Virus record (IMG/VR): IMGVR_UViG_3300027886_000005
Span: 2,249-66,248 of that record
Strand: one strand, 5' to 3'
Length of the DNA: 64,000 nucleotides
Origin: a virus
Taxonomy: Duplodnaviria; Caudoviricetes
This document shows positions 1-59,400 of this stretch, piece by piece; position 1 is the first letter of the stretch, and every line of letters starts with the position of its first letter. The notes under the pieces are model-generated. The model did no database searches and was not told the origin of the DNA. It saw nothing but the letters and a program-made list of their open reading frames with translations. A program made the position numbers and the translations under genes.

Positions 1-451
1 CCGCGCACTGGTTGTCGACGCATGCGCCGTAGAGGCCACCGTCCGCCATGCACGCGTCGGAGCCGGTGCCAGGTGGCCACACGCATGCGCCCCAGTCGAG
101 CGAACACGTGGTGCCGCCGAGACAGTCGGCGTCGCCTTCACAGGGGCTGTAACAGTCCCCGTTGAAGAAGTCACACGACGGCGGTCTGGCGCCGAACTGC
201 GCCGCACAGGCCACGACCTCGACGCCGGTGGGTCCAGTTTCGGAGTCGACGCCGCAGATCGTGCCATTTGGGAGCGAATCGAGGCAGATGAGGCCAGGAG
301 CGCAGAGGTGCGTGTCCTCCGGACACGGCCCGAAGAGTTGACCAACCTGGCCGCACTCGGGGGGCGGAGGGACGTCGATCGGGGGCCAGTCGCAGCCGAT
401 GAAGAAGGTGGACGCGACGAAGATGATGGATGTGATGGTGGTGCGGGGCAT
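1..451 (-). CDS. Cys-rich lipoprotein, 'FGPC' family, two-domain form, 3'-truncated by the window edge (absent from the ORF track)
   Basis: Manual translation from ATG 451: MPRTTITSIIFVASTFFIGCDWPPIDVPPPPECGQVGQLFGPCPEDTHLCAPGLICL...CVWPPGTGSDACMADGGLYGACVDNQCA. Lipobox FIGC; no stop before base 1; ATG overlaps the upstream TGA. Confidence 0.8.
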   Translation of the reverse strand, partial: MPRTTITSIIFVASTFFIGCDWPPIDVPPPPECGQVGQLFGPCPEDTHLCAPGLICLDSLPNGTICGVDSETGPTGVEVVACAAQFGARPPSCDFFNGDCYSPCEGDADCLGGTTCSLDWGACVWPPGTGSDACMADGGLYGACVDNQCA

Positions 452-975
452 CACAGCACCTCGTGCGCCACAGCCAAGCAGCCGCAGGTGAGCATGACGT
501 CGTCGCAGGTCGAGTCGCCGATGAGCGAGTCGCAGGTGTTCTCGATGTAGAAGCACACGCCGCAGGCCTCGTCGCCCTGCTCGCACTTCAGCTTGACGAT
601 GTCGACGTACTGCTGGGGCATGCCGGTCGACTCGGCGAGCGCGACGGCCTCGTCGCACCACATGCGGTGGCCCGGGGCACACTCGACCATGTCGGCGGGG
701 TCGCTCGGGACGCAGTAGGTCGGCTCGTCGACCGGTTCGCCCGTCGCGTCGTCGGTCGTCGTCGCACTCGAACCCGTCGTCGGCTCCGAGGTCGAATCGG
801 TGGTGGTCGTCTCCTCTCCGCCGCTGCTCGACGGGGTCGACGGATCAAGGGTGTTGGAGGTGGTGGTCGGGGGCGGCGAGGTCTGGGTCGATCCGACGCC
901 GTCGTCGGCGCATGCGGTGATGATGAATGAAAGGGAGGCTCCGAGGAGCACATGGGCGTATGTCTTGAAGTTCAT
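451..975 (-). CDS. Lipoprotein with Thr/Ser-rich linker and Cys-rich C-terminal domain
   Basis: Signal peptide ending ITAC, low-complexity TTTDSTSEPTTG linker, many Cys in the C-terminal half. Confidence 0.8.
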   Translation of the reverse strand: MNFKTYAHVLLGASLSFIITACADDGVGSTQTSPPPTTTSNTLDPSTPSSSGGEETTTTDSTSEPTTGSSATTTDDATGEPVDEPTYCVPSDPADMVECAPGHRMWCDEAVALAESTGMPQQYVDIVKLKCEQGDEACGVCFYIENTCDSLIGDSTCDDVMLTCGCLAVAHEVL

Positions 976-12577: not shown

Positions 12578-15550
12578 ATGCCAAACGACACCGAGGCGCC
12601 CTCCGCGGCGCAGTGGCCAGACCTGTCCTCGTGGCCAGACGACGACGCGCCGCCCGTTGAGTGGGCCCGCTTCTACCGCGACCGCTGCGGGTGGATCGTC
12701 GTCCCCACCGCCGGACCGATGGACGTCCTCTCGTGGGCCCGCTCGCTGGCCCAGGACGCCGCGGCCGCGTACGCCGATGACCACGGCGGACCGCCCGACG
12801 AGGAGACCGCCGTCGCGCTGTGGGACGCTGCCCGCGAGGAGGCCGACGACCTGCTCGGCCGCCCCGTCGGGTACATCTACAAGGCGTGGATGGCCAAGGT
12901 GGCCGTCGCCGCCGACGTCACCGACGCGATGCTCCGCGAGGCGTGGGAGCCCCTCGAGCACAGCCGCGGCCCGCGCAACGAGGCCGACCGCCGCGGCGTC
13001 GCCGTCCTCCCGAACCGCTCCGCTCGGGGCCTGCCGGTGGTGTTGGTCGACGTCGACCCACGCTCCGGCGGCGACGTGGACGGGCCGTGGGGCATGCAGT
13101 TATCTGGCCCGAAGGCCAGCACCCCAGGCGATGGCGTACACACGCTCATGCTCGCCACCGGCAAGGAAGTCGCGGGCTGCGACCTCGGCCCCGGCGTCGA
13201 CGTCGTCGCGGCCGGCGGCACCGCGATCCCGCTGCCGAGCGGATCCGCCACGCCGGGGCGCCGGTGGCTCCGCATGGACCCGCCCGTGGTCGCTCCCGAG
13301 CAGCTGCGCAAGAGGGGACGCAAGAGGGCCCCGCCCCGCATCCGGGAGGGCGCCAGGGGCACTGAGGCCGAGCGCCAGCCCGGCGACGACTGGGGCGACG
13401 ACGAGGGCCAGGGCGCGCAGGTCGTGTCATCCCCCGTCGGCGACGGCGAGCGGAACCGGGCCGCCGGCATTCTCGTCGGCATGCTCGCCAGGCCGCGCAG
13501 CCTCCCCGGTGACTTCGTCCGCGCCTGCCTCGAGCTGCTCGCGGAGGAGATGGCTGGGCGCGACGCGCCGTCAACGGAGATGCGTGAGGAGATGGCCCGG
13601 TGGCAGGTCCTCCTGACCCGCGGCCCGCGCGACGAGGCATTCGCCGCCGAGGTCATGGAGACTTGGCTCCGCGTCCGCGACACCAGCCGCAAGCGGATGC
13701 GGACCCCGCCGGCCAAGTTCGCCGCCTCGGTGTGGCGCGTCTGCGACCGCCGCGAGGAGGGCCGGGCCGGCGAGGAGGACCGCGGCGTCGGCCCGCCGCT
13801 CGGCGCCTGGCCGCCGGACGTCCCGGGCAGGCCGGAGCCGGTGCCGCCGTCAGCATCCACGACAGCCACTGAGGCGCAGCAGGCCGGACCTGGAGACGCC
13901 ACGACTGCTGACCCGGTGCCGTTCCCCCCGCCGCCGCCCGCGGTCGCCCAGGCCGCCGTGGAGGCGTCCAGGGTCGAGACTCCCCGGTGGCGCGGCGGCG
14001 TCGACCCCCGGCTCTTCGCCCCGTCCCTCGCCGAGGACTACACGCGCGACGACCTGCAGCGCGACCTCGAGCGCGAGCCGATCCGGATCTGCCGCGTCAT
14101 GCCGGCCATGGACTTCGCCACCGGCCAGCACTCGACGTCGCCCGACCTCCTCACCCGACCTGTCGAGTTCGGCTGGGGCGAGCACATGGCCGCGGCGAAG
14201 CGCGGGCTCTCCGCGGGCGACTTCGTTGCCGTCGGGGCCAGCAGCGCCGGCGCGGGGAAGACCACCTACCTCGCCTGGCTGCTGAACGGCCTCGCCCTCC
14301 AGACCGCGATGCGGCTCCTCCGCGCCAAGGGCTTCGAGGACCGACCCCTCGTCCTCCCGATCTGGGCCAGCGAGATGCCGAAGCGGAACGAGCTGTACGG
14401 CCGCCTCGTGACCGCCTACCTCGGCTTCCACCGGGCGGTGCTCGACGACGGCCCGATGGCCGAGGAGGCCCCTGGCGTCCTCGCGGCCGCCTCCGCGGGC
14501 CGCATGGCCCCCGCCGAGTACGTCGCCAAGGCCCGGGCCATGGAGGACTTCTACGGCAACGACGAGCGGTGCCCCCTGGCCGTCGCGCGCGCGCACGTGA
14601 TCCGCCGGATCAACCCGTCGCGGCTGCCCCGACACTCGCGCAGCCTCGGCGTCACCGTCCACCACCGGTCCGGCCCCGACCTCGTCGAGCACCTCGCCGA
14701 CGCCGTCGACCTCTTCCGCGAGGACCTGGCGGCTCGCGCCGGCGTCCCCACCGACAAGGTCCTGCCGGTCGTCGTCGTCGACCCGGTGCAGCGCTTCGCC
14801 GGCCCCGGGGGGCAGAGCGAGAAGGGGGCCATCGACGCGATCCTCGGCGCGCTGAACGACGTGCTGTGCCGCGAGCTCGGGTGCGTCGTCATGGCCACGT
14901 CCGACACGACCAAGGGCGGCGCCAGGACGGGGCTCGACTCGTTCCTGTCCGCCGACGCCCCGGCGCTCATGGCCGACGTGCTGTCGGGCTCCCAGGGCAT
15001 CGTGCACCACGCGAGCGACGTCGTCGTCGTGCACCCGGAGGCCCCGGCGCACGGCGCCCCGCCGCCGCGGGTCCGGGACGGCGGGCGGGAGCGCGAGATC
15101 GGGCCCGGGTGCGTCCGCCTCTGGACCCGGCTCCTGCGCTCCCGCGGCGGGGGCGAGTCGCCGCTCCTGTTCCCGTACGAGTGGGACCGCGCCCTGGGCC
15201 GGCTGCGCGAGCTCGACCCCGAGCCGCTGCGCCCCCCGCCGGAGCGGGACGACGACGCCAGGCGTGGCGGCTCCTCCCGCCACGCTGGCCACGCCGGCCA
15301 GGGCGGCCCCCCGCGACTCGACCCCGCCGCCGACTACCGGCTGCACAAGGCCGGCGCCCGGATGCGGGACGGGTCGCACGTCGAGGACCTCGGCCTCGCC
15401 TTCACGGACCTCGCCCGCGAGGCGATCGGGATCGACGGGCGCCCGGACCCGCACCCCGGCAAGCGCTGGTGGCCGGACGTGGTCGTCTCCGGGCGCGCGG
15501 CCGCGCACGTCCTGGCGGCGATGACCTGCCGGCACGAGCGGGTGACGTAG
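12578..15550 (+). CDS. Bifunctional primase-polymerase fused to a DnaB/RecA-fold helicase
   Basis: Prim-Pol motifs GWIVVP, LVDVDPRSGG, STPGDGVH, GVDV; Walker A GAGKTT; Walker B VVVVDP. Confidence 0.85.
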   Translation: MPNDTEAPSAAQWPDLSSWPDDDAPPVEWARFYRDRCGWIVVPTAGPMDVLSWARSLAQDAAAAYADDHGGPPDEETAVALWDAAREEADDLLGRPVGYIYKAWMAKVAVAADVTDAMLREAWEPLEHSRGPRNEADRRGVAVLPNRSARGLPVVLVDVDPRSGGDVDGPWGMQLSGPKASTPGDGVHTLMLATGKEVAGCDLGPGVDVVAAGGTAIPLPSGSATPGRRWLRMDPPVVAPEQLRKRGRKRAPPRIREGARGTEAERQPGDDWGDDEGQGAQVVSSPVGDGERNRAAGILVGMLARPRSLPGDFVRACLELLAEEMAGRDAPSTEMREEMARWQVLLTRGPRDEAFAAEVMETWLRVRDTSRKRMRTPPAKFAASVWRVCDRREEGRAGEEDRGVGPPLGAWPPDVPGRPEPVPPSASTTATEAQQAGPGDATTADPVPFPPPPPAVAQAAVEASRVETPRWRGGVDPRLFAPSLAEDYTRDDLQRDLEREPIRICRVMPAMDFATGQHSTSPDLLTRPVEFGWGEHMAAAKRGLSAGDFVAVGASSAGAGKTTYLAWLLNGLALQTAMRLLRAKGFEDRPLVLPIWASEMPKRNELYGRLVTAYLGFHRAVLDDGPMAEEAPGVLAAASAGRMAPAEYVAKARAMEDFYGNDERCPLAVARAHVIRRINPSRLPRHSRSLGVTVHHRSGPDLVEHLADAVDLFREDLAARAGVPTDKVLPVVVVDPVQRFAGPGGQSEKGAIDAILGALNDVLCRELGCVVMATSDTTKGGARTGLDSFLSADAPALMADVLSGSQGIVHHASDVVVVHPEAPAHGAPPPRVRDGGREREIGPGCVRLWTRLLRSRGGGESPLLFPYEWDRALGRLRELDPEPLRPPPERDDDARRGGSSRHAGHAGQGGPPRLDPAADYRLHKAGARMRDGSHVEDLGLAFTDLAREAIGIDGRPDPHPGKRWWPDVVVSGRAAAHVLAAMTCRHERVT

Positions 15551-20836: not shown

Positions 20837-22711
20837 GTGCTCGGCCTCTACGACCTTCTCGACGCCGGCGTCGCCGAGCCCGACCTGACGGCCTGGCTCG
20901 GTGGCCGCGCCGTGCCCAGGCTGCCGTCGCTGTCGCCGAAGGAGCGGCGGGCCATCTGCGAGGCGTGGTGGTTCTGGGCGCGTCCCGGGCAGCGCTGGGA
21001 GCCCGGCCCCGAGTTCATCACCGACTTCGAGTGCGGCCGCGGGTTCGGCAAGGACTACCTCGTCAGCCAGACCATATGCCAGCAGGCCGCGCTCGACCCG
21101 GAGCGCTGGGGCGGCTACGCGATCGTCGTCGGCCCCGACCCCACACAAGTGAAGCGCGATTGCCTGTTCGGCCCGTCCGGCATCTTCCCCGCGGCCGAGC
21201 GGGCGGCGAGGTCCGGCAACGGCCCGGCCATCGTCGACCGGAACCTCGTCGACCGGTGGCTCCGCTTCGAGTCGCCGCGGGGCGGCGGCTCGGGCGGCCT
21301 CACCGTGTATTGGGCCGCGTCCTCCGACCCGAAGTCCGTCCACGGCGCGAACGTCGGCCTCGTGTGGTGGGACGAGTTCGGGGTCTCGTACCACCGCCGC
21401 TACGACGAGCAGGGCAACAACGCGTGGCGGGCACTGCTGCCGGCGGTGCGCCTCGGCCTCGACCCGAAGATCATCATCACGCAGACGCCGAGCCGGGCGC
21501 CGGAGGTGCGGGCGCTGCAGGCCGACGCCGAGCGGCCCGAGTGCCCGCGGTGCCGGGCCGAGGCGCTCGCCCGCGGGCCGTACGTCGGGGCGCCGCTGCA
21601 GGAGCCGTGGAGGCTTCTGCGGTCGCCGCAGCGACGACTGCACCCAGCGCTCGACACCCGCACCACCGAACCGGTGCGCGAGTGCCCGGCCTGCGGCTCG
21701 CGCGTCGTGGCCCGCGTGCGGACCGTGTTCGGGGCGACGACCGACAACCCGTCGCTGGCGGCCCGGGCCCGAGACGACGCGGCACGCGAGCTCGAGGGCG
21801 GGACCGCGGCGGCCCGGCTCCGGTTCGCCCCGCGCGGGGAGGCCGACGCCGGCGGCGAGGGGGCGCTCATCCGCCACGAGCACGTGCTCGAGGTGACGGC
21901 CGGCGCCCCGCCAGCACGGCCCGGCGGCCCCGTCCCCGACCTGCACATGCGCGCTCTGGACGAGGTTGGGGCCGACGAGGTCGTGGTGTTCGTGGACCCC
22001 GCCGTCACCGCCTCGGAATCCTCCGACGAGACGGGCCTCGTCGCCGCATGCGTGCGCCGGACCACCCACGGCGGCCGCGAGGTCCGCCAGGCGGTGGGCC
22101 TCACCGACGCGAGCGTGCGGCCCGACGAGGTCGCCTCGGGCCCTCCGAGCGCCGTGTGGGCCCCGCGGGCGTACTGGCAGGCGGTGCTCTGGGGCGCGAG
22201 GCGGATCGTCGTCGAGGTCAACCAGGGCGGTGAGGAGGTGCTGTCCGCGGTGCGCGATCTGTGCGACCGGCCGCCGAGCGAGGCGGAGTGCCTGGCGCGG
22301 CTGCGGGGGGAGCACCCAGGGGCCAGCGACGCGCAGCTCGGCGCGCTGACCCGGCGCCTCGCCACCAGCGCCCGCGGCATCGCGGTCGAGGCCGTCCGGC
22401 GGCGGGCGCCCAAGCCGGCCCGCGCGGAGTGGTACGGCCGCACCGCGAGCCTCGGCCAGCAGGCCGTCCTCTGCGTCGAGTGGCAGGACGGGGCGAGGCA
22501 CTGGCAGACGTGCGTCGGCCAGGCGACCGGATACGAGCCGCCGCGGGCCGACGCGCCGCCGTCCGCCCGCCGCGACCGCAAGGACCGTTGGGACGCCTTG
22601 TGCGGCACGGCCCAGGTCCTCCTCGGCGTGCGCGAGACGGCCCGCGGCGAGGTTGAGGACGCGCAAGGACAAGGGTGGATGGGGCAGGTCAGCAAGTCGT
22701 CGCTGCGCTGA
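20837..22711 (+). CDS. terL: Terminase large subunit
   Basis: GRGFGK Walker A, WWDEFG Walker B, ITQTP, FVDPA..SDETG, VEVNQGGE, DRWDA. Confidence 0.9.
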   Translation: MLGLYDLLDAGVAEPDLTAWLGGRAVPRLPSLSPKERRAICEAWWFWARPGQRWEPGPEFITDFECGRGFGKDYLVSQTICQQAALDPERWGGYAIVVGPDPTQVKRDCLFGPSGIFPAAERAARSGNGPAIVDRNLVDRWLRFESPRGGGSGGLTVYWAASSDPKSVHGANVGLVWWDEFGVSYHRRYDEQGNNAWRALLPAVRLGLDPKIIITQTPSRAPEVRALQADAERPECPRCRAEALARGPYVGAPLQEPWRLLRSPQRRLHPALDTRTTEPVRECPACGSRVVARVRTVFGATTDNPSLAARARDDAARELEGGTAAARLRFAPRGEADAGGEGALIRHEHVLEVTAGAPPARPGGPVPDLHMRALDEVGADEVVVFVDPAVTASESSDETGLVAACVRRTTHGGREVRQAVGLTDASVRPDEVASGPPSAVWAPRAYWQAVLWGARRIVVEVNQGGEEVLSAVRDLCDRPPSEAECLARLRGEHPGASDAQLGALTRRLATSARGIAVEAVRRRAPKPARAEWYGRTASLGQQAVLCVEWQDGARHWQTCVGQATGYEPPRADAPPSARRDRKDRWDALCGTAQVLLGVRETARGEVEDAQGQGWMGQVSKSSLR

Positions 22712-22714
22712 TGA

Positions 22715-22954
22715 TCAGTCAGCGCTGGGTTCTGGCGTGGCCCAGTAGGTGGGGCTGCACTCTACGATGACCCTCCACTTGGTGATGGCGCTGGCTTCGT
22801 CTCGCACGCTGATGCGGCGGCCATGCTCAAACATGCTGTCGCACTCGGCCTGCTCCGCCCATCCTTCAGCGGCGTCGCTCTCGCAGGCTGCGATGATGAC
22901 GACCGAGTCGTCGATGGTTTCACACTCGTCGTCCCACACGATGAAACTGGGCAT
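22715..22954 (-). CDS. Inserted hypothetical gene
   Basis: TGC-TACCAT-6nt-ATG. Confidence 0.6.
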   Translation of the reverse strand: MPSFIVWDDECETIDDSVVIIAACESDAAEGWAEQAECDSMFEHGRRISVRDEASAITKWRVIVECSPTYWATPEPSAD

Positions 22955-23022
22955 GTGGACATGGTAGCACGCGCGAACACGTTACCTTGTCGCTCGCCGC
23001 CCGACGCGCCACACTGCATCTC

Positions 23023-23436
23023 ATGCAGCAGCCCACCATGTTCGCCCACGACGGCGCCACCATCTACTACCCCACCGCGCCCGGGCGCGTGTACATGATC
23101 GCCGTCGCCGCGCTCGCGGACGTCGACGGATCCGACGAGGACATGCTCGACTCGACGAACACGGGAGACATCTCCGACCTCGTCGCCACGTCCAAGAGCA
23201 GCGGCGGCCGACTCTCCGCCCTCATCACGGGTGACCGACTCTTGCCTCCAGGGGCGTGGCCCCGCGTCTACGCCGAGGTCGACGGCGACCTGTCGGGGCT
23301 CGTCGACCACGAGGCCACCGCCCAGGACTTCCACGACGCGCTCGAGCAGTGGGCCGACTGGTGCGACCGCGACTCGGCCCGGCTGGACTCGCTCGACGAG
23401 GTCCGCGGGGCCATCGAGCGGTCGGCGGCGGCCTGA
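23023..23436 (+). CDS. Hypothetical protein
   Basis: CACACT-7nt-ATG; acidic globular ORF. Confidence 0.55.
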   Translation: MQQPTMFAHDGATIYYPTAPGRVYMIAVAALADVDGSDEDMLDSTNTGDISDLVATSKSSGGRLSALITGDRLLPPGAWPRVYAEVDGDLSGLVDHEATAQDFHDALEQWADWCDRDSARLDSLDEVRGAIERSAAA

Positions 23437-23474
23437 ACGCAGGTCACGCGCGGACGTGCTATCCTGTCTGCGTC

Positions 23475-23966
23475 ATGACCGCCCGCAAGAGAGCCGACCG
23501 CCTCGCCAAGATCACGTGCCCCCGCCAGGCCGCGGTGGCGAGGGCCGTCAGTCCGATCCTCGACGTGTTCTCCACCGGGTTCGCCAAGATGGGGCCGGAC
23601 GAGCGGCTCGCCGCGTTCGTGCCGGCGGACGACTACGCGGCCAGGTGGCGCAACGCGGTGCGCATGCCCGCGCTGGGGATGGTCGCGCGCCTGGGCCGGG
23701 ACCTGGGGCTCGGCACCAACGAGCTCCACGGCGACGCGAAGCTGCGCGGCCGGACGCAGGTGCCCGAGCTCGCGGGCATCAACAGGACGACGCTCCTGAA
23801 CGCGCTGTGGATCTGCGACGCGATGCTCGAGGACCAGGCTGACATGCCGGCGCTCGCCCTCGCCCGCTACACCACGATCCGCTCGCGCGCGCAGGCGGAG
23901 GTCCGGTCCGAGCGGTCGCGCAACGAGTGCGAGTGCTCCGCGTGCTCGAAGGAGCGCGCCGCATAG
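23475..23966 (+). CDS. Hypothetical protein, possible regulator
   Basis: Class-A promoter; C-terminal CECSAC; directly upstream of the sigma gene. Confidence 0.55.
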   Translation: MTARKRADRLAKITCPRQAAVARAVSPILDVFSTGFAKMGPDERLAAFVPADDYAARWRNAVRMPALGMVARLGRDLGLGTNELHGDAKLRGRTQVPELAGINRTTLLNALWICDAMLEDQADMPALALARYTTIRSRAQAEVRSERSRNECECSACSKERAA

Positions 23967-23981
23967 TTCACGGCGTTCAGA

Positions 23982-24022
23982 GAGACATGATAGCTTGACT
24001 CTCGTGCGGCGTCCTGTAGTGT
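23982..24022 (+). promoter_or_regulatory. Operator plus sigma70-type promoter of the phage sigma gene
   Basis: GAGACA-TGATAGCT-TGACTC; TTGACT-16nt-TAGTGT-7nt-ATG. Confidence 0.65.
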
Positions 24023-24029
24023 GCATCAC

Positions 24030-25235
24030 ATGCACGCCAGATTGCCCGCCGCCATGACGCACCACCCGATCTTCTCCGCCGAGGAGGAGCACGCCGCGTT
24101 CACCTCGATCCACGAGGCCCGCGTCGCCGCCTGGCTCGCCGTCCTCTCCGACCGCAACCTCGCCCCACGCTGCCTTCCACCGACCACTCCGGGGCTCGCC
24201 GAGCACGTGGTCTGGGACGCCGCCCGCGAGGCCGCGGTGATGCGGCCCGTCCGCGCCACCCTCGCCGCCGCCGCGTGGTACGCCGAGCCGCTGGCCCGCC
24301 GCCTCGCCGCCGACGACATGTCCTGCGAGGGGCTCTTAGCCGCCCGCGCCGTCGTCGGCCGCCTCGCCGCCCGCCGCTCCACGTCCCCCGCCTGGGTCCG
24401 CCAGGTCGGCGCCGCGATGGCCCGGCTCGCCGCCGCCGTCGACCACGTCGAGCGCCACAACCTGCGCCTCGTCGTCCAGCAGGCCTCCCGCCATTCCCAC
24501 CGCTGCAGCGCCCTCACGCTCCACGACCTCGTCGGCTACGGCGCCCTGGGCCTGCGGATGGCCGTCCTGCGCTTCGACGTCTCCCGCGGCCTGCGCTTCT
24601 CGACCATGGCCACGCACTGGATCAGCCACCCGATCCGCCGCGCGATCCAGGACCGCCGGTCGACGATCCGCGTCCCGGTGCACATGCAGGAGCGCATGGC
24701 CAAGGTCGCCCAGGCCCGGCGCGTGCTGCTGAACGCCACCGGCGAGGAGCCGACCGTCGAGCGGCTGGCGGAGGCCACGGGCGAGCGCGACGTCGCCGGG
24801 GTCCTCGAGGTCCTGCACATGGGCGGCGAGGCGGTGTCGATCGACGCCCCGACGTGGCGGGACGACGGCTCCACGGAGGCCATCCGCGACTCGCTCGCGG
24901 ACGTCGGAGCCCCGACGCAGGACGAGGTCGTCCACGACCGGGAGCGACGGGGCCTCGCCGCGCGCCTGCTCGACGCGCTCGACGACCGCGAGCGGTTCAT
25001 CGTCGAGGCGCGGTGGGGGATGCTGGGCGGAGAGGAGTCCTCATACAAGGACCTCGCCGACGTCCTGGGCGTCACGCGCCAGCGCGTGCAGCAGTTGCAG
25101 GAGGCGGCCATGCGCCGGCTCCGGGCTGCGGCAGACCGCATTGACGATCCCTCTCCGCGGAGGCCCGCGCAGAACGTCGCCCCCGCACACCGCCCGACGT
25201 TCTCGCCGGGCGTGCAGGTGCAGCTGGCGCTGTGA
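24030..25235 (+). CDS. RNA polymerase sigma-70 family factor (RpoD/RpoS-like regions 2-4)
   Basis: NLRLVV, DLVGYGALGL, FDVSRGLRFSTMATHWI, IRVPVHM, VSIDAP, LGVTRQRVQQLQEAAMRRLR. Confidence 0.92.
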   Translation: MHARLPAAMTHHPIFSAEEEHAAFTSIHEARVAAWLAVLSDRNLAPRCLPPTTPGLAEHVVWDAAREAAVMRPVRATLAAAAWYAEPLARRLAADDMSCEGLLAARAVVGRLAARRSTSPAWVRQVGAAMARLAAAVDHVERHNLRLVVQQASRHSHRCSALTLHDLVGYGALGLRMAVLRFDVSRGLRFSTMATHWISHPIRRAIQDRRSTIRVPVHMQERMAKVAQARRVLLNATGEEPTVERLAEATGERDVAGVLEVLHMGGEAVSIDAPTWRDDGSTEAIRDSLADVGAPTQDEVVHDRERRGLAARLLDALDDRERFIVEARWGMLGGEESSYKDLADVLGVTRQRVQQLQEAAMRRLRAAADRIDDPSPRRPAQNVAPAHRPTFSPGVQVQLAL

Positions 25236-27374
25236 CTACCACGCGACCGCGTCGGCCTGCGACCGGAACGACTCCCACGACTCACTGCGCTCCGCCGGAG
25301 AGTCGCTGATCGTGACGGCGACCGCATGGCGGGTGGCGGCCGGTGGCACATGGACAACCGGCGTGGCGGCGGGGGGGTCGACAACCCGCTCGCCGAGGTC
25401 CGGCCGCGCCTCCCCGCCGGCGATCCGCCGCAGCGCCTCGACGGCCCGCGCGTAGATCTTCCGTACGGATTCCTTGGCCAACGTCCTCCCGCTGCACGCG
25501 AGCCCGGACTCGCCGATCGACAGGAAGCTCTCTCCACCGGCGCCCTGCGTGCCCTCGGCGATCGAGTCGAGGCCGTGGTGCCGGCGGACGACCTCGGCCA
25601 TCTCGGGCCCGCGCAGGTCGCCGTCGCCCGAGGCGCGCAGGGCCGCCAGCGCGGACAGGGCCCGGCCCCACCGCGAGGCAGCCTCCTCCTCGTCGGCCTC
25701 GCGCTCGAAGTCGTCGGGCGCCGCGAGCACGGCCGCGGCCCGCTCGACCCCGCCGGCGCCGTCCGTGCCCTGCGAGTCCTCGTCGTCGTCCCCGCCGCTA
25801 CCGACCCCGACGAACACCGGGGCGCCGTGCCGGAGGGCCGCCAGCAGGCCCGACCCGCTGGCGCCCTTGATCTCGAGCACCTTCGCCACCCACGCGGCGA
25901 GGAACTCGCGGGCCTGCTCGGGCAAGCGGTCGACTGCGCCCGAGGCGGCCACCTTGGACCGGGAGCGCCACGGCGGGCGCGGCCGGCTGCCGAGCGCGGA
26001 CCGCATGAGCCGGCGGCGCGGTGACGGGCCTGGCGGCGGGAGGGCGGCGGCCATGGCCTCGCGGGCGATCTCGTCGACAGGGCGCCCGGCCAGCAGCGCC
26101 CGGCGCGTGCGGCGGGTCGGGCGGCTGCCGGGGACGACCTCGACGGACTCGGCGAGGAAGAGGAGGTCGGCGAGGACCAGCGCGTGCCCCGGCGTCGTCG
26201 ACTCCGCCAGCGACTCGATCGCCGCCAGCAGCGCCCGGGCGGCGTCGTGGCCGTGCAGGTGCAGCCGGTCCTGCACGGCCCGGCGCAGGTCCAGCACCCA
26301 CGGGGGCACGCCGACGAGGTCGCGCCGGGCCCACGCCTCGCCGCTGCCCTGTCGGGCCCACGCGGCGGCGTACGTCGTGAAGCGGGCGTGCCGGGCGTCA
26401 TAGTCGAGCCCCCCGCGGTCGAGGCCGATCATCGCGCCCTGGGTCAGGTCGGCCCGGGTGACGCCGTCGCGGGGCGAGTGGTAGCGCAGCTGCACCGCGA
26501 TCCCGGTGCGGCCGTTCGTGCGCACGTTCCGCTGGCGCGCGGCCATGAGCGGGCCCACGGCGGCGAGGACCTGCGGCGGGACGCCGGGCCGGGGCGAGCG
26601 GACGTCGGCGGCCGCTACGGCGGCGTGGAGGCGGTGGGCGCCCTCGTCGGCCCACGCGCCGGGGTCGTCGACGGGCCTGGGCGGCGCCGACGCCACGGCG
26701 GCGAGCAGGGCCCGCAGGTCGCGGTCGGCGGCGACGTCGTACCCGCTGGCGGCGCCGCGTGGCGTCTCGAGCGCCGCGGCCATGGTGGCGAGGTCGACGC
26801 TCCCGGCGGGGTAGAGCGCGAGGGTGCCGCAGCGCTCGACGGCCCCGGCGGCGCGGCGGACCTTGGACGGCCGGCAGGCGACGGCGCGCGGGCTCCAGGC
26901 GCGACGGGCGGCCGACACGACCTCGACCGCGTGGACGACGCCTGCATCGCGGAGGACGGGCGAGGAGACGACCACGGCGGCGCGGGCTGGCCGGGCCCGT
27001 CGCCTGCCGGCGGCGGGGCAGGGCCGAGGCTCCTCGCCCGGTCGCATCGGCCGGCGGCACCAGCGGCAGGCGGGCGGCGGGTCGAGCCAGTCGGCCACCG
27101 CGAGCCGGAGCTCGCGGACGCCGTCGCGCCCGGTGGGGTCGCCGGGCAGGGACCGGGCCCGGAGCGCGGCCGCGAGCCGCTCGGGGACGAGCCGCTCGGC
27201 CAGCGCCCAGAGCCGCCGCCGGAGCGGAAGGATCGCCGCGGCCGCCGCCTGGCCGTCGCGTTTGGCCTCCTCGGTGCTCACCCGGGCGTACGAGTCGACG
27301 ACCATCGCGGCGACCGGGGTGTCGAGCTCGTGCGCCCCATGCCGCTGGGGGCCCCTGATCTGGGTCTTACTCAC
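25236..27374 (-). CDS. Large divergent sigma-70-like protein
   Basis: Region 2 DLTQGAMIGLDRGGLDYDARHARFTTYAAAWARQ, VGVPPWV; region 4 VVRRHHGL...SFLSIG...ESVRKIYARAVEALR. Confidence 0.75.
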   Translation of the reverse strand: MSKTQIRGPQRHGAHELDTPVAAMVVDSYARVSTEEAKRDGQAAAAAILPLRRRLWALAERLVPERLAAALRARSLPGDPTGRDGVRELRLAVADWLDPPPACRWCRRPMRPGEEPRPCPAAGRRRARPARAAVVVSSPVLRDAGVVHAVEVVSAARRAWSPRAVACRPSKVRRAAGAVERCGTLALYPAGSVDLATMAAALETPRGAASGYDVAADRDLRALLAAVASAPPRPVDDPGAWADEGAHRLHAAVAAADVRSPRPGVPPQVLAAVGPLMAARQRNVRTNGRTGIAVQLRYHSPRDGVTRADLTQGAMIGLDRGGLDYDARHARFTTYAAAWARQGSGEAWARRDLVGVPPWVLDLRRAVQDRLHLHGHDAARALLAAIESLAESTTPGHALVLADLLFLAESVEVVPGSRPTRRTRRALLAGRPVDEIAREAMAAALPPPGPSPRRRLMRSALGSRPRPPWRSRSKVAASGAVDRLPEQAREFLAAWVAKVLEIKGASGSGLLAALRHGAPVFVGVGSGGDDDEDSQGTDGAGGVERAAAVLAAPDDFEREADEEEAASRWGRALSALAALRASGDGDLRGPEMAEVVRRHHGLDSIAEGTQGAGGESFLSIGESGLACSGRTLAKESVRKIYARAVEALRRIAGGEARPDLGERVVDPPAATPVVHVPPAATRHAVAVTISDSPAERSESWESFRSQADAVAW

Positions 27375-27457
27375 GAGGGGACATGGTAGCACGTCCGCGC
27401 GCGGCCCGAACGCCGTCCACCGGCCGGCCGACCCGCCGATAACTAAACGGCGTCAAG

Positions 27458-27499
27458 GAGACATGATAGCTTGTCTCCCGCCTGTAGGTCGTGTAGCTT
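27458..27499 (+). promoter_or_regulatory. Perfect dyad operator plus promoter
   Basis: GAGACA-TGATAGCT-TGTCTC; TTGTCT-17nt-TAGCTT-7nt-ATG 27507. Confidence 0.75.
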
Positions 27500-27506
27500 G
27501 GAGTCC

Positions 27507-27695
27507 ATGCAGCACACCTACCGCGCCGCCATCTGGACCTCCGCCGACCGCCAGGCCCAGCTTCGCCTCACCGATGAGTCTCAGCAACACCTCTCCGACG
27601 AAGCCTTGCTCAAGGCCGCCGAGATCGAGGCCGCCAGCGTCAACCTGTGGCGCGAGGACGGCGACTCCATCATCGTCGACATGTGGAGTGAGTAG
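27507..27695 (+). CDS. Small hypothetical protein
   Basis: Leaderless start behind the promoter. Confidence 0.6.
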   Translation: MQHTYRAAIWTSADRQAQLRLTDESQQHLSDEALLKAAEIEAASVNLWREDGDSIIVDMWSE

Positions 27696-27697
27696 CC

Positions 27698-27895
27698 ATG
27701 ACCAAGCAACCCCCGCCCCTCACCGACCGCGCCATGGACTACATCCGACTCAACGCCCCAGTCAGCATCGCCGACGTGTGCGGCGCCATCTCCCGCGGCA
27801 ACAGCTGGAAGCCGGCGGAGAACGCCGTGGCGAAGCTCTGGACCGCCCAGCGCATCGTCGTTCGCGACAACGTCATCACCATCCCGGAGACCTGA
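27698..27895 (+). CDS. Small protein, possible winged HTH
   Basis: AMDYIRLNAPVSIADVCGAI pattern. Confidence 0.55.
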   Translation: MTKQPPPLTDRAMDYIRLNAPVSIADVCGAISRGNSWKPAENAVAKLWTAQRIVVRDNVITIPET

Positions 27896-27898
27896 GCC

Positions 27899-28153
27899 AT
27901 GACCGCCGAACACGACACCGACGACCTCGACTTCGCGATGCTCACCCCGCCGACCCGCCCTGGCCCCTGCGAGGCCGCCACCGCGCCAGAGGTTGACCCG
28001 GTCGAGAAGCGGCTGGAACAAGCGCAGATGAAAGCAGCGTTCATTCGCCCCATTGAGATGACGCAGGCAGACGTGGCCCGTCGTGCCGCAAGCTCACTCG
28101 GCAAGCCGCTGACCATCGAAGTCCGCCACGGCAGCGGAAAGGTCAAGGTCTGA
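27899..28153 (+). CDS. Small hypothetical protein
   Basis: Member of a compact operon. Confidence 0.55.
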   Translation: MTAEHDTDDLDFAMLTPPTRPGPCEAATAPEVDPVEKRLEQAQMKAAFIRPIEMTQADVARRAASSLGKPLTIEVRHGSGKVKV

Positions 28154-28156
28154 GCC

Positions 28157-28453
28157 ATGGAACGACTCGTCAATGTCTACATCGGGCCCTCGTGCCCAGA
28201 GTTCACCACCAAGGCAACCGCCATCAAGCCGGGCATGGAATGCACTATTGCGCATCCTAATGACCGATATGCGGCGACCGTAAAGGATGTCGCGCCGAGC
28301 GGCGCATACGTGATCGTCGAGCGGAATGGAGAGCGGCGCAAGTTCACGTGGCGCAAGGGCCGATCTGACGTAGGCCACTTCGCTCAGCCCGGTTCGTGGT
28401 CGCCGACCCTGATCCTCGGCGTCGCAGAGGACTACCTGTCTCCCGACATCTGA
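28157..28453 (+). CDS. Small hypothetical protein
   Basis: Member of a compact operon; ends EDYLSPDI. Confidence 0.6.
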   Translation: MERLVNVYIGPSCPEFTTKATAIKPGMECTIAHPNDRYAATVKDVAPSGAYVIVERNGERRKFTWRKGRSDVGHFAQPGSWSPTLILGVAEDYLSPDI

Positions 28454-28470
28454 GCGATTACCCTCGCCGC

Positions 28471-30411
28471 GTGCCCGACACGCGCCCCGCCCGACCCGGC
28501 CTCCTCGCCACGCTCGCCGAGGGGGCCGCTCGCGTCTTGGGCGTGCGGTTTGACGGCGGGCCGGTGCAGGCCGTGGTCCCGTCCGCAGAGGCCCGCTCCG
28601 TCATGGACTGCGGTCCTGGTGGCGGATGTGGAGGGCCACCGGTCGGATGGGGCGGTTCGCCCCAAGTAGCGATCACGCCGAGCCTCGACCGCGCCACCAT
28701 CGACGACCTGTACTCCGACCAACTGATGCGCCGGATCGTCCGGCTCATCGTCGACGACGCGATGGGCGTGCGCCCGAGCCTCGCCGGGGACGCCGGGGAG
28801 CAGTCGTCGACGATCGGCTGGATCGAGGGCCGCGGAGGCTGGGACGAGGCCGAGCGGGCCATGATCTACGCCCGACAGTACGGCGGCGGCGGGGTCGTGT
28901 GCATCGTCGACGACGGCCGCCCAGCCGACCAGGAGGTCGACCTTGCCGCCTGCCGGGACGTCGTCGGCTACTACGCGCTGCCGAAGTGGTACCTCGTGCC
29001 TGACGGCGTCGGCTCGGGCCGCGTCTCCGCTGGTTGGTACGGACCCCGCGTGGGCCGGCCAGAGCACTACTTCGTCACCCCGGTGACCGCGCTCGGTTCC
29101 GACGCCGGGCTCTCCTCGCTGCCGCCCGACCAGCGCGAGGCGGCGGAGGCGGCCCACCCGCGCCGCATGCCGCGGGACCTGCGGCGGATCCTGAACAAGA
29201 GCGGCTACCGCTTCCACCGGAGCCGCGTCATCGCGTGGCCCTACGTCGACGAGATGGACCTGAGGCTGGCCCGTTGGTTCCCCCAGTGGAACGGCTGGGG
29301 ACCTGGCGTGGTCGAGGCCGTGCTCGCCCCGTTTCTGGCCCGTCGCCAGGGCGCCCTGCGCATCTCGGCCATCATGCGCAGCGTGGTGGTCAACACGATG
29401 GAGATCACGAACCTGGAGCACCGGCAGACGACGCCCGACCTGGGCGCCGCCCTGCGGAACGCGCTCGAGTTCGTGAAGTGGTGCCGGGACTACACCGACG
29501 ACTCGGTGCCGCTCATCGCCCACGACAAGAACGCGAAGTTCGGCAGCCTCACGCACCAACTGGGCGGCATCGACAAGCTGGTCGAGGCGCAGCGCCAGTA
29601 CCTCCTTGACGTGGTCGAGTACCCGGCGGTGGTGCTGTTCGGCGACTCGGTCGGCGGCATGAACGGCGGCGACCGGGCCGGCGAGCACCGGTCGTACGCG
29701 GCCCGCGTCCGCTCCTTCCAGAACCGGTGGGTGTGGACCGCCGGGTCGTTCGGCGGCGGGTTGCGCCAGATGGTGCTGCAGGCCCAGGCGTGCCGGCGCG
29801 GGCCCACCGGCGGCCGCATGGACCCGACCGTCCAGGCGACGTGGCCGTCGATCCTGAGCGAGTCCGAGGACGACCGGGTGAGCCGGCGCCTGAAGAACGC
29901 CCAGGCCCGCGCGCAGGACCGCGTCGCCCTGGGCCTCACCGCGGCGGCGTTGCGCCGGTTCGACCCGACCGTGCGCGAGGACTACCCTGGCCTCGACGTG
30001 GACGAGGGTCCGCTGCCGACGATCTCCGCGGCGACGCCTGGAGAGGCGGCCCCGCGCGGGTCGGTGCCGGCGGTCGAGCCGGACGGGGCCGACGTGACCG
30101 CCACGACCCCGGCGGCGGCCAACGAGGCGATCGTCGAGGGGGAGGGGTCTGGCCCCGCCACAGGCCCGGCCACCGACGCGCCGGAGCGGATGGTCCTCCC
30201 AGACGACGTGCACACCGAGTCGGAGATCGCCGCGGCGATGAAGATGACCCGCCAGGCCCTGCGCCGGATCATCGCCGAGACCGGCGTGGTCCCGGTCGTG
30301 AGGAGCCCTCCGGGCGCCCGCGGCGGGGACCGCTACAGCCTCGGCGAGGTCATGGCGGCCTTCCAGGCCCAGGCGACGCGACGGGCCGACGCGATGCGAC
30401 GGGGCTACTGA
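28471..30411 (+). CDS. Portal protein (DUF1073-like) with a C-terminal HTH extension
   Basis: IDDLYSDQLMRRIVRLIVDDAM, ARQYGGGGVV, YPAVVLFG; position before the protease; TACCCT-6nt-GTG. Confidence 0.8.
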   Translation: MPDTRPARPGLLATLAEGAARVLGVRFDGGPVQAVVPSAEARSVMDCGPGGGCGGPPVGWGGSPQVAITPSLDRATIDDLYSDQLMRRIVRLIVDDAMGVRPSLAGDAGEQSSTIGWIEGRGGWDEAERAMIYARQYGGGGVVCIVDDGRPADQEVDLAACRDVVGYYALPKWYLVPDGVGSGRVSAGWYGPRVGRPEHYFVTPVTALGSDAGLSSLPPDQREAAEAAHPRRMPRDLRRILNKSGYRFHRSRVIAWPYVDEMDLRLARWFPQWNGWGPGVVEAVLAPFLARRQGALRISAIMRSVVVNTMEITNLEHRQTTPDLGAALRNALEFVKWCRDYTDDSVPLIAHDKNAKFGSLTHQLGGIDKLVEAQRQYLLDVVEYPAVVLFGDSVGGMNGGDRAGEHRSYAARVRSFQNRWVWTAGSFGGGLRQMVLQAQACRRGPTGGRMDPTVQATWPSILSESEDDRVSRRLKNAQARAQDRVALGLTAAALRRFDPTVREDYPGLDVDEGPLPTISAATPGEAAPRGSVPAVEPDGADVTATTPAAANEAIVEGEGSGPATGPATDAPERMVLPDDVHTESEIAAAMKMTRQALRRIIAETGVVPVVRSPPGARGGDRYSLGEVMAAFQAQATRRADAMRRGY

Positions 30412-58132: not shown

Positions 58133-58494
58133 GGTGGCGCGACTCCGCCGAGGACGCCAAGGCCCGCAACGCCGCGCTCCCGACCGGCGTCGAGCCGGAG
58201 CCGTTCCAGGAGGGCCTCGCCTTCCGCCCCGACGACGGCACGCCCCGCGGGCGCTGGCGGGTCGCACGCGAGTCCGTCGACGGGCCCGAGCGATGGTGCG
58301 TCTGGGACCTGCGGCGCGGGCCGCCAGAGCGACCGACCGCGGTCATGGTCTGGGGCGGCCTGCCGACGCCGCAGGCGGGGATCGTCGTGGCGACGGCCCT
58401 GTCCCGGGCCCGCCCGATGCGCGTCATCCTGGCGGCCCTGCGCGCGCTCAGGGTGGGCGCGCGGGCCGTGCGGGACGAGGCGTCGCTCAACTAG
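58129..58494 (+). CDS. Hypothetical protein
   Basis: ATGA coupling. Confidence 0.5.
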   Translation: MRWRDSAEDAKARNAALPTGVEPEPFQEGLAFRPDDGTPRGRWRVARESVDGPERWCVWDLRRGPPERPTAVMVWGGLPTPQAGIVVATALSRARPMRVILAALRALRVGARAVRDEASLN

Positions 58495-59015: not shown

Positions 59016-59078
59016 GCTGGGCGGAGAATACGGGCGGGCGCGGCTCGGGCGCCCGGACTGATAATTAACGTCGTCAAG

Positions 59079-59120
59079 GAGACATGATAGCTTGTCTCTC
59101 GCCACGAGCTCGTGTAGCTT
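59079..59120 (+). promoter_or_regulatory. Perfect dyad operator plus promoter
   Basis: GAGACA-TGATAGCT-TGTCTC; TTGTCT-17nt-TAGCTT-7nt-GTG; shares its motif with the 27458 promoter. Confidence 0.75.
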
Positions 59121-59127
59121 GATTCCC

Positions 59128-59400
59128 GTGACCACGTCGACCGCCACCTTCCCGCTCACCGACAACACCTACTACCTCGACGGCGACTCGCTCGCCATCG
59201 CCCGCCAGTGCGCCTCCGGCTCATATCAGCAGGACCTGGTCGAGGGCCGGGCCCGCTGGTCGGGGGCGGACCTCGAGGGGGCCGCCCGCCAGTGGGGCGG
59301 CCGCTACAGCGGGAGCCGGCGCTCCCTGCTCCGGAAGATGCGCGCCGCCGGCCTCACCCTCGTGTGGGTGACCGCCTCGCACGGCCGCCGCGTTCACTAA
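59128..59400 (+). CDS. Small hypothetical protein
   Basis: Leaderless GTG. Confidence 0.6.
   Translation: MTTSTATFPLTDNTYYLDGDSLAIARQCASGSYQQDLVEGRARWSGADLEGAARQWGGRYSGSRRSLLRKMRAAGLTLVWVTASHGRRVH

Follow-up and report, generated by a model that had tools for sequence, protein, structure and literature searches.

Bacillus phage SPO1 runs a sigma cascade, with gp28 as the middle factor and gp33-gp34 as the late factors. The middle and late promoters of Thermus phage P23-45, which grows in a high-GC host, consist of an extended -10 element, have no -35 element and give leaderless mRNAs, although this phage uses small RNA polymerase (RNAP)-binding proteins together with the host sigma and has no sigmas of its own. 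The locus described here contains two convergent sigma-70 genes, called sigma 1 and sigma 2, in a 64,000-nucleotide stretch of a tailed virus (Duplodnaviria; Caudoviricetes). This stretch, hereafter the window, covers positions 2,249 to 66,248 of the IMG/VR record IMGVR_UViG_3300027886_000005. Several sigma genes in one phage have a precedent in SPO1 and SP10 (three sigma genes) (PMC9429907).

Multi-sigma phages and sigma cascades such as those of SPO1 and SP10 are textbook knowledge. The well-studied cascades come from few cultured phages of Firmicutes and enterobacteria, while the phages considered here are 65-kb high-GC soil phages. What is new is a large sigma clade with a four-cysteine (Cys4) insert, unnamed by Pfam or PHROGs, the fixed convergent pairing of two sigma genes between terL and portal, and three classes of putatively leaderless promoters. 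Both proteins are sigma-70 family members, their gene order is conserved, and so are the three promoter-like classes and their positions. It is about an even call that both genes encode working sigma-70 factors of a three-step early/middle/late cascade, which would lead from the host sigma through the phage sigma(s) to the late genes.

Two convergent genes of the sigma-70 family

The preliminary description of this DNA had reported two convergent sigma-70 genes without a gap, and this is confirmed: the stop codon TGA of sigma 1 (25233-25235) meets the stop codon CTA (TAG) of sigma 2 (25236-25238) with a gap of 0 nt (TGA|CTA at 25233-25238). The window has a GC content of ~72%, and such GC-rich DNA yields long open reading frames (ORFs) in every frame. 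The third-position GC (GC3) values of 0.94 for 24030..25235 and 0.95 for 25236..27374, however, mark both ORFs as real genes. The positions of all features are collected in Table 1.

Sigma 2 is a real, very divergent protein of the sigma-70 family, made of one continuous and much-expanded chain. The preliminary description had called it a 712-aa split sigma; its length and its sigma identity hold, but it is not split, being a single chain with inserts. Its GTG start is backed by the N-terminus MSKTQIRGP, common to the homologues. Direct searches recognize it poorly. Pfam Sigma70_r2 scores 22.1 bits on the protein (cut-off 24) and 27.3 bits in the translated genome search, Pfam r4 was not detected on it, and PHROGs has no family for it. 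Among 50,697 phage records, tblastn with sigma 2 returned nothing at E<=1e-3 and blastn with the sigma pair left sigma 2 unmatched. There are ~50 homologues, mainly on contigs of ~20-70 kb, all of them unnamed or labelled ‘hypothetical’. An exhaustive profile search gave 46 sigma 2 representatives at E<=1e-30 and, at E<=1e-3, ~11,000 ordinary sigma-70 proteins. Conservation was read from an alignment of 25 homologues (33-88% identity by search), and 13 of the 25 family members match Sigma70_r2 at E<=0.1.

The family profile gives a clearer picture. It matches the SigA, RpoD and RpoS chains of the PDB over regions 1.2-2.4 with E-values from 3e-10 to 1e-7. In hhalign, the sigma 2 family aligns with the sigma 1 family over regions 2.1-3.0 with 97.8% probability, and its C-terminal block aligns in the correct register with region 4 of the sigma 1 family (75.5%, E 2.4e-5, 80 columns), as compared to 0.1% for the mismatched control pairs.

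The preliminary description had set a sigma fold as the test for the large ORF, and the AlphaFold model of sigma 2 (predicted local distance difference test, pLDDT, of 72) has it, with Z-scores of 10.0 for sigma2 and 7.3-8.0 for sigma4. In VIA-align, 94 of the 96 residues of RpoS region 1.2-2 (5h6x_B) are superimposed with Z 10.0 and a root-mean-square deviation (rmsd) of 2.4, and 154 of the 180 residues of domain 2 of Taq SigA (3ugo_A) align over model residues 18..353. Region 4 of SigL, SigD, sigmaE and SigW matches residues ~554-656 with Z of 6.6-8.0 (6dv9_F, Z 8.0; 3hug_A, Z 7.9, 77/80 aligned; 2h27_D, Z 7.3, 66/69 aligned, rmsd 1.9). Whole sigma chains align along residues 19-656 of the model, and residues 355-520 are covered by such whole-chain alignments (9fo6_F over model 20..521). 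The top 50 Foldseek matches in the PDB are all sigma chains, but with E of only ~1e-2; the top matches in BFVD are phage sigma factors, one of them of 685 aa, and all leads from the ESM Atlas, which with scores <0.9 are leads only, are viral or bacterial sigma clusters. Identity to known sigmas in the matched domains is 16-26%. The annotation of the ~50 ‘hypothetical proteins’ can be changed to sigma-70 family factor; core binding and promoter-specific initiation by sigma 2 are predicted from its sequence.

The regions 2 (~267-370) and 4 (~555-656) of sigma 2 lie far apart, as had been noted, with ~185 residues between them. The N-terminal helices, residues 20-97, have a pLDDT of 80-93 in the full model, where they pack on sigma domain 2 and occupy the place taken in SigA by region 1.2 and the non-conserved region. 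Modelled by themselves, the N-terminal 270 residues reach a pLDDT of 58, too poor for a structure search, which fits helices that need sigma2 to pack against. The CxxC-like motif reported earlier in the N-terminus belongs to a set of four invariant cysteines, C103, C106, C119 and C167. They lie in a segment inserted at the position of the SigA non-conserved region, where the model, of low confidence, shows short strands at residues 101-103 and 169-174, and the insert is presumed to bind zinc. A group of relatives of 540-630 aa (P0085-P0099, P0110-P0116) shares the part from region 2 to the C-terminus and has another N-terminus of ~170-220 aa without the Cys4 module, suggesting that the N-terminal module of sigma 2 is exchangeable. 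The acidic Gly-rich loop GSGGDDDEDSQGTDGAGG is a candidate for the region 3.2 ‘finger’ or for a linker.

Residue equivalences to sigma70 were read from the printed alignments. The sigma 2 family keeps, invariant or nearly so, the equivalents of D403 and Q406 in the core-binding helix and of Y430, W434, R436 and Q437, which capture the -10 element. The equivalents of H455 and E458, the TG-reading pair, are replaced by a conserved VPxW.

These residues bear on a reading in which sigma 2 would not initiate transcription at all, but would act as a decoy or host shut-off protein on core RNAP or a host factor, or as an anti-sigma-like partner of sigma 1 through its Cys-rich N-terminus. The large extras of sigma 2 (the N-terminal 260 aa, the inserts and the C-terminal tail) and its sub-threshold Pfam scores are in line with such a role, and the four invariant cysteines resemble zinc-binding anti-sigma domains. 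However, the residues for -10 capture and strand separation are conserved family-wide together with the recognition helix of region 4, and the retention of the -10-capture residues suggests that sigma 2 reads promoters rather than acting as a decoy. Moreover, the conserved class B element described below requires a conserved reader. A ZAS anti-sigma domain was rejected for sigma 2, as the His of the HxxxCxxC motif is replaced by Pro (P99) in 25 of 25 sequences, though the CxxC part (C103, C106) is present. The sigma/anti-sigma pair of the preliminary description is unsupported, given this missing His and the retained -10-reading residues, and a non-initiating role of either kind is considered very improbable.

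Sigma 1 belongs to the sigma-70 family and has the usual arrangement of domains, but it is no orthologue of RpoD or RpoS. Pfam scores are 46.5 bits for Sigma70_r4, 34.5 for r3 and 23.9 for r2, the last just missing the cut-off of 24, and PHROGs assigns the protein to phrog_351 (sigma factor) at 7e-42. The C-terminal RpoS/RpoD models of NCBIfam match at 1e-48 to 1e-50, with scores far short of the equivalog cut-offs (170 vs 379 for RpoS, 163 vs 354 for RpoD_Cterm). The N-terminus is region 1.2-like and is followed by a ~100-aa spacer before region 2; region 1.1 is absent and Pfam r1.2 is not matched. Near relatives of sigma 1 are confined to related phage contigs, and none of the cellular sigmas found exceeds 37-38% identity. 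Near-invariant positions of the housekeeping sigmas are altered in the sigma 1 clade, which has DLVGYG for DLIQEG and FSTMATHWISH for FSTYATWWIRQ, while the TG-reading His/Glu pair is retained in VHMQE. The earlier label ‘canonical group-1/2-like’ is borne out by regions 2, 3 and 4, but membership in group 1/2 (RpoD/RpoS) was rejected on account of the scores below the equivalog cut-offs, the missing region 1.1 and the changed key residues. MzaA, a sigma of an anti-phage system (NF041931, 726 aa, cut-off 800 bits), was also rejected for both proteins: it scores 147.8 bits on sigma 1, over the C-terminal sigma part only, and 13.1 bits on sigma 2, over region 2 only. The start options of sigma 1 are ATG 24030, located 7 nt past TAGTGT, GTG 24021 and ATG 24054.

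Promoter-like classes and the proposed cascade

The preliminary description had distinguished two promoter classes; they were found, and there are in fact three. All three lie 6-9 nt ahead of start codons and have a TAnnnT core in common. Class A, defined as TGnTAnnnT with a start codon 5-9 nt on, has 26 copies where 1.0 is expected and heads ~26 genes, which serve replication, packaging and small accessory functions. Class B is TA[CG]CCT with a start codon 5-8 nt on, or in its long form TAsCCTCGCCsC-GTG; its 14 copies, against 1.2 expected, are found nearly all on the + strand from the portal gene onward and head the portal, virion and lysis genes. Class C is composed of an exact dyad, ~15 nt, TGTAGnnT, 7 nt and a start codon, and its three copies head sigma 1 (24015), the four small genes that lead into the portal gene (27492) and one further gene (59113).

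The dyad is a 16-mer, GACATGATAGCTTGTC, found 16 times in the window with up to three mismatches (0.12 expected). The dyad sites that had been noted ahead of both sigma genes are present, at 23984-23999 for sigma 1 and at 27380-27395, over the -10 box, for sigma 2. The dyad flanks of class A suggest a further, putative regulator that binds DNA as a dimer. In class C the dyad's right half provides a -35-like hexamer. Classes A and B have no conserved -35 element: a match of at least 5/6, for which the background rate is 0.6%, occurs in 0 of 23 class A sites, and not even a 4/6 match is seen in any of the 14 class B sites. Genes internal to operons carry a Shine-Dalgarno-like GGAG and the boxed genes do not, as read directly from the sequence, which fits leaderless transcripts; the boxed genes probably have leaderless starts.

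The order terL-like gene, sigma 1, sigma 2 (on the opposite strand) and portal is kept in at least eight related contigs, L002-L009, with sigma 2 identities of 33-88%. In all of L002-L009 the sigma 1-type gene is convergent with the sigma 2-type gene, and the terL-like neighbour has ~625-650 aa. A class A box precedes the start of the sigma 2 homologue at the same distance in L002, L004-L009 and the partial contig L012. L002, L004-L007 and L009 have a class B variant (TACCCT, TAGCCT, TATCCT or TAACCT, with C-rich DNA and GTG after it) before the portal gene. The -35 and spacer of the sigma 1 promoter are TTGACT/16 in the window and in L006, GTGACA/17 in L005 and TTGACA/18 in L008; TTGACA/18 was also read by eye in L007, and in L009 the -35 match is 3/6 only.

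Several observations accompany these sites. The class C copies are part of a composite element of ~70 bp, present three times (23964-24030, 27440-27508, 59061-59128), with a conserved AT-rich flank and the exact dyad GACATGATAGCTTG(T/A)C, followed by TGTAGnnT 7 nt before a start codon. The ORF of the portal protein is open from GTG 28396, but the class B box TACCCTCGCCGCGTG makes GTG 28471 the likely, leaderless start, and the same holds for the portal starts annotated in L006 and L009. In L005 (8001-8046) the conserved VSKTQIRGP start stands behind the class A box, and the start given in the database for the sigma 2 homologue is 15 codons further upstream; this gene call is probably too long. 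Class A-type boxes with start codons are also seen on the antisense strand inside the large sigma gene at L009:6814 and 7408 and at L004:6718 and 7396, with none in the window copy; these may be promoters for antisense transcription or mark small genes embedded there.

Only two sigma-70 genes were found in the record by domain searches of the protein set and of the translated genome, and no RNA polymerase catalytic domain was detected in it, the T7-type search having been run without a positive control. With no polymerase gene detected in the record, host core RNA polymerase is the presumed partner, which sigma 1 and sigma 2 would retarget. In the first step, the host primary sigma would read class C, giving the leaderless mRNA of sigma 1 and a few small early proteins. 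Sigma 1 would be made first since its promoter is of the housekeeping type (-35 TTGACT, 16 nt, TG-TAGTGT) and presumably readable by the host primary sigma. In the second step, either the host sigma or sigma 1, with its retained TG-reading His/Glu pair, would read the class A genes, including sigma 2. In the third step, sigma 2 would read class B and switch on the portal, virion and lysis genes; it is proposed for this role because it keeps -10 capture, has replaced the TG-reading pair and has gained the Cys4 N-terminal module. Indirect backing, from the conserved housekeeping-type promoter, exists for the first step only; the later steps are proposed from where the genes lie and from the logic of the residues.

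Which sigma reads which class is conjectural, and both may be working sigmas with other roles. Sigma 1 could read class B, with class A or a limited set of special promoters left to sigma 2. Alternatively, the two could act in parallel, each replacing a host sigma shut off by the phage. The TAnnnT core of all classes is readable by any sigma-70 family member, the altered -10-reading residues of sigma 1 fit a non-standard box such as TAsCCT, and the sigma 2 gene divergently adjoins a class C promoter. On the other hand, sigma 1 keeps VHMQE for a TG that class B does not have and sigma 2 has lost this pair; in every relative, moreover, the sigma 2 gene immediately precedes the first gene of class B. 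Such a different division of labour is thought rather unlikely.

Several points weigh against the three-step cascade as proposed. Classes A and C might need no reader other than the host primary sigma. Every relative has both sigmas and both promoter classes, so co-occurrence cannot tie a sigma to a class. The core-binding and -10-reading positions of sigma 1 differ from those of housekeeping sigmas, which makes its specificity uncertain. The Pfam scores of sigma 2 are near or below threshold, and its comparison with region 3 of the sigma 1 family by hhalign gives 0.1%, that is, no sequence support. The record is estimated by CheckV to be only ~75% complete, no RNA runs containing this DNA are listed among the public runs, and a sigma 2 homologue filed under Nannocystis was read as mis-binned phage DNA and gives no host call. 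The transcriptional cascade of the preliminary description may reasonably be read from the two real sigmas and the conserved promoter-like classes, and it is strengthened by the housekeeping-type promoter of sigma 1 and by class B ahead of the portal gene in the relatives checked.

An extension of the cascade concerns the N-terminus of sigma 2. The helical module and the four-Cys zinc insert would replace regions 1.1, 1.2 and the non-conserved region, forming a new sigma architecture, and this module would read class B over its conserved part, which is unusually long and reaches from -12 to the start codon (TAsCCTCGCCsC-GTG), so that late promoters are read without -35 or TG and transcription starts exactly at the start codon of leaderless late mRNAs. 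This proposal is speculative and judged improbable. The assignment of sigmas to classes, if true, would provide a compact orthogonal set of sigmas and promoters for high-GC hosts and, in sigma 2, a natural sigma reading promoters without -35 or TG elements.

The convergent junction and the surrounding genes

The zero gap of the sigma pair is not special, as tight packing is the norm in this genome: the gaps at the four convergent junctions of the window measure 0, 1, -4 and -217 nt. A scan of 22700-28600 found no canonical promoters or intrinsic terminators, but it is uninformative for high-GC DNA. The convergent genes abut or overlap with no terminators in the scanned stretch, suggesting that transcript ends are set some other way. 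The imperfect inverted repeat in the 3' tail of sigma 1 folds on the - strand with -50.4 kcal/mol (z -2.4; z -0.5 on the + strand) and may, weakly, be terminator-like for the leftward transcript. Among the relatives, the 3' ends of the pair are separated by 0 nt in L006 and 4 nt in L009, in L007 and L008 the ends overlap an inserted small gene by ~40 nt, and in L005 two small genes separate sigma 1 and sigma 2, the latter being the sole gene on its strand bar one 42-aa call.

The gapless convergence could itself be a switch, in which transcription of each sigma gene would continue antisense into the other, and polymerase collision and antisense RNA would keep the two sigmas mutually exclusive in time, a reading compatible with the cascade. 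No intrinsic terminator was found between the genes, abutting or overlapping 3' ends recur among relatives with identities of 33-88% (L006, L009, L007, L008), and the sigma 2 gene of L005 is nearly alone on its strand, with the 42-aa call besides. Yet all four convergent junctions have gaps of at most 1 nt, which makes tight packing general, one or two small genes lie between the sigmas in L005, L007, L008 and L009, and the hairpin just past the sigma 2 stop may end the leftward transcript. The antisense-coupled switch of the preliminary description is accordingly weakened by the tight ends at every convergent junction, while it remains that no terminator separates the genes; it is viewed as unlikely.

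Table 1. Positions of the sigma genes, their parts, promoter-like sites and neighbouring features in the window
Feature	Position	Strand	Details and basis
Sigma 1	24030..25235	+	401 aa from ATG 24030; Pfam, NCBIfam, PHROGs, GC3
Sigma 1 region 2	24453-24662	+	Pfam r2
Sigma 1 region 3	24690-24881	+	Pfam r3
Sigma 1 region 4	24966-25127	+	Pfam r4
Sigma 2	25236..27374	-	712 aa, GTG start 27374; profile, hhalign, structural alignment
Sigma 2 N-terminal helices (RRxLWxLAE..LAAALRAR..LRxAxADWLDPP), residues 20-97	27084..27317	-	most conserved; invariant columns
Sigma 2 Cys insert, residues 103-167	26874..27068	-	C103-x2-C106-x12-C119...C167, all four invariant
Sigma 2 regions 2.1-2.4 and 3.0, residues 267-370	26265..26576	-	profile, hhalign, structural alignment
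Sigma 2 acidic Gly-rich disordered loop, residues 518-554	25713..25823	-	conservation; pLDDT <50
Sigma 2 domain 4 (4.1, 4.2, helix-turn-helix, loop inserts), residues 555-656	25407..25712	-	VIA-align, hhalign
Sigma 2 C-terminal helix (W..FR..A..VAW), residues 698-711	25242..25283	-	conserved only at >=47% identity
Class C promoter of sigma 1	23984..24029	+	dyad GACATGATAGCTTGAC 23984-23999, -35 TTGACT 23995-24000, 16-nt spacer, TG-TAGTGT (-10 24017-24022), 7 nt to ATG 24030
Class A promoter of sigma 2	27375..27395	-	dyad GACGTGCTACCATGTC 27395-27380 with extended -10 TGcTACCAT, 8 nt to GTG 27374
Second class C promoter, divergent from sigma 2	27460..27510	+	exact dyad 27460-27475, TGTAGCTT, 7 nt to ATG 27508
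First class B box	28459..28473	+	TACCCTCGCCGCGTG; at portal gene; Pfam Phage_portal_3
Imperfect 17-nt inverted repeat	25163..25211	.	within sigma 1 3' tail, 25 nt past sigma 2 stop
Other convergent junctions	47611/47613; 58491-58494; 15334-15550		gaps 1, -4, -217 nt
terL-like gene	20837-22711		624 aa; upstream of sigma pair; phrog_2 weak match, 8.9e-8

The window is nearly the whole of the 66,248-bp virus record. The sigma pair sits between a terminase-like gene and the portal gene, the latter followed by genes for a DUF2213 protease/scaffold, a cement protein and the major capsid protein. A Pfam search with the 624-aa terL-like protein gave no match. With the terL-like gene upstream of the sigma module, the usual adjacency of terminase and portal is broken in all relatives. 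Between sigma 2 and portal, at 27508-28450, are four small genes encoding proteins of 62, 65, 84 and 98 aa; they have GGAG Shine-Dalgarno-like spacing and no PHROGs match and, under the second class C promoter, are candidates for early host-takeover proteins.

The top DNA match among the public runs is a soil metagenome, possibly the sample of origin. A host assignment from named genomes was rejected, as the matches are short contigs of metagenome-assembled genomes from discordant phyla (Verrucomicrobiota, Actinomycetes, Polaromonas) and were read as mis-binned phage DNA.

Comparison with known systems

Like SPO1, this virus is a tailed phage without its own polymerase, with more than one sigma-70 gene, with promoter classes split between early and late genes and with a first phage sigma under a host-type promoter. 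Unlike in SPO1, the cascade here is a proposal from sequence, and no kinship in sequence is detectable beyond the sigma-70 superfamily. The second sigma is here a single 712-aa chain with sigma2, sigma4 and the Cys4 insert, the sigma genes are convergent between terL and portal, and all promoter classes lie 6-9 nt from start codons.

Sigma 2 is similar to RpoD/SigA and RpoS (5h6x, 3ugo, 7vpd, 4xln) in its sigma2 fold, its sigma4 fold, the order of these domains and an insert at the non-conserved region, and sigma 1 has 1.2-like, 2, 3 and 4 regions as the group 1/2 sigmas do. Unlike those, neither phage protein reaches any NCBIfam equivalog cut-off, and sigma 2 is without the TG-reading pair and has the Cys4 insert, an expanded segment from 3.0 to 4 and a C-terminal tail.

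Among viral proteins, the closest structural match of sigma 2 is the ‘RNA polymerase sigma-70 factor’ of Vibrio phage vB_VchM_Kuja (685 aa, BFVD A0A6B9J5H3; E 9.6e-4, probability 0.99, 439 columns), which shows that sigmas of ~700 aa occur in phages, though its identity to sigma 2 is only 16%. The late ‘split sigma’ of T4, gp55/gp33 (PDB 7d7d, Z 6.9 to the sigma 2 model), is similar in having a phage sigma2-like reader of the -10 element and late promoters without -35. In T4, however, the functions are divided over two small proteins and a sliding clamp, whereas here sigma2 and sigma4 are carried on one chain.

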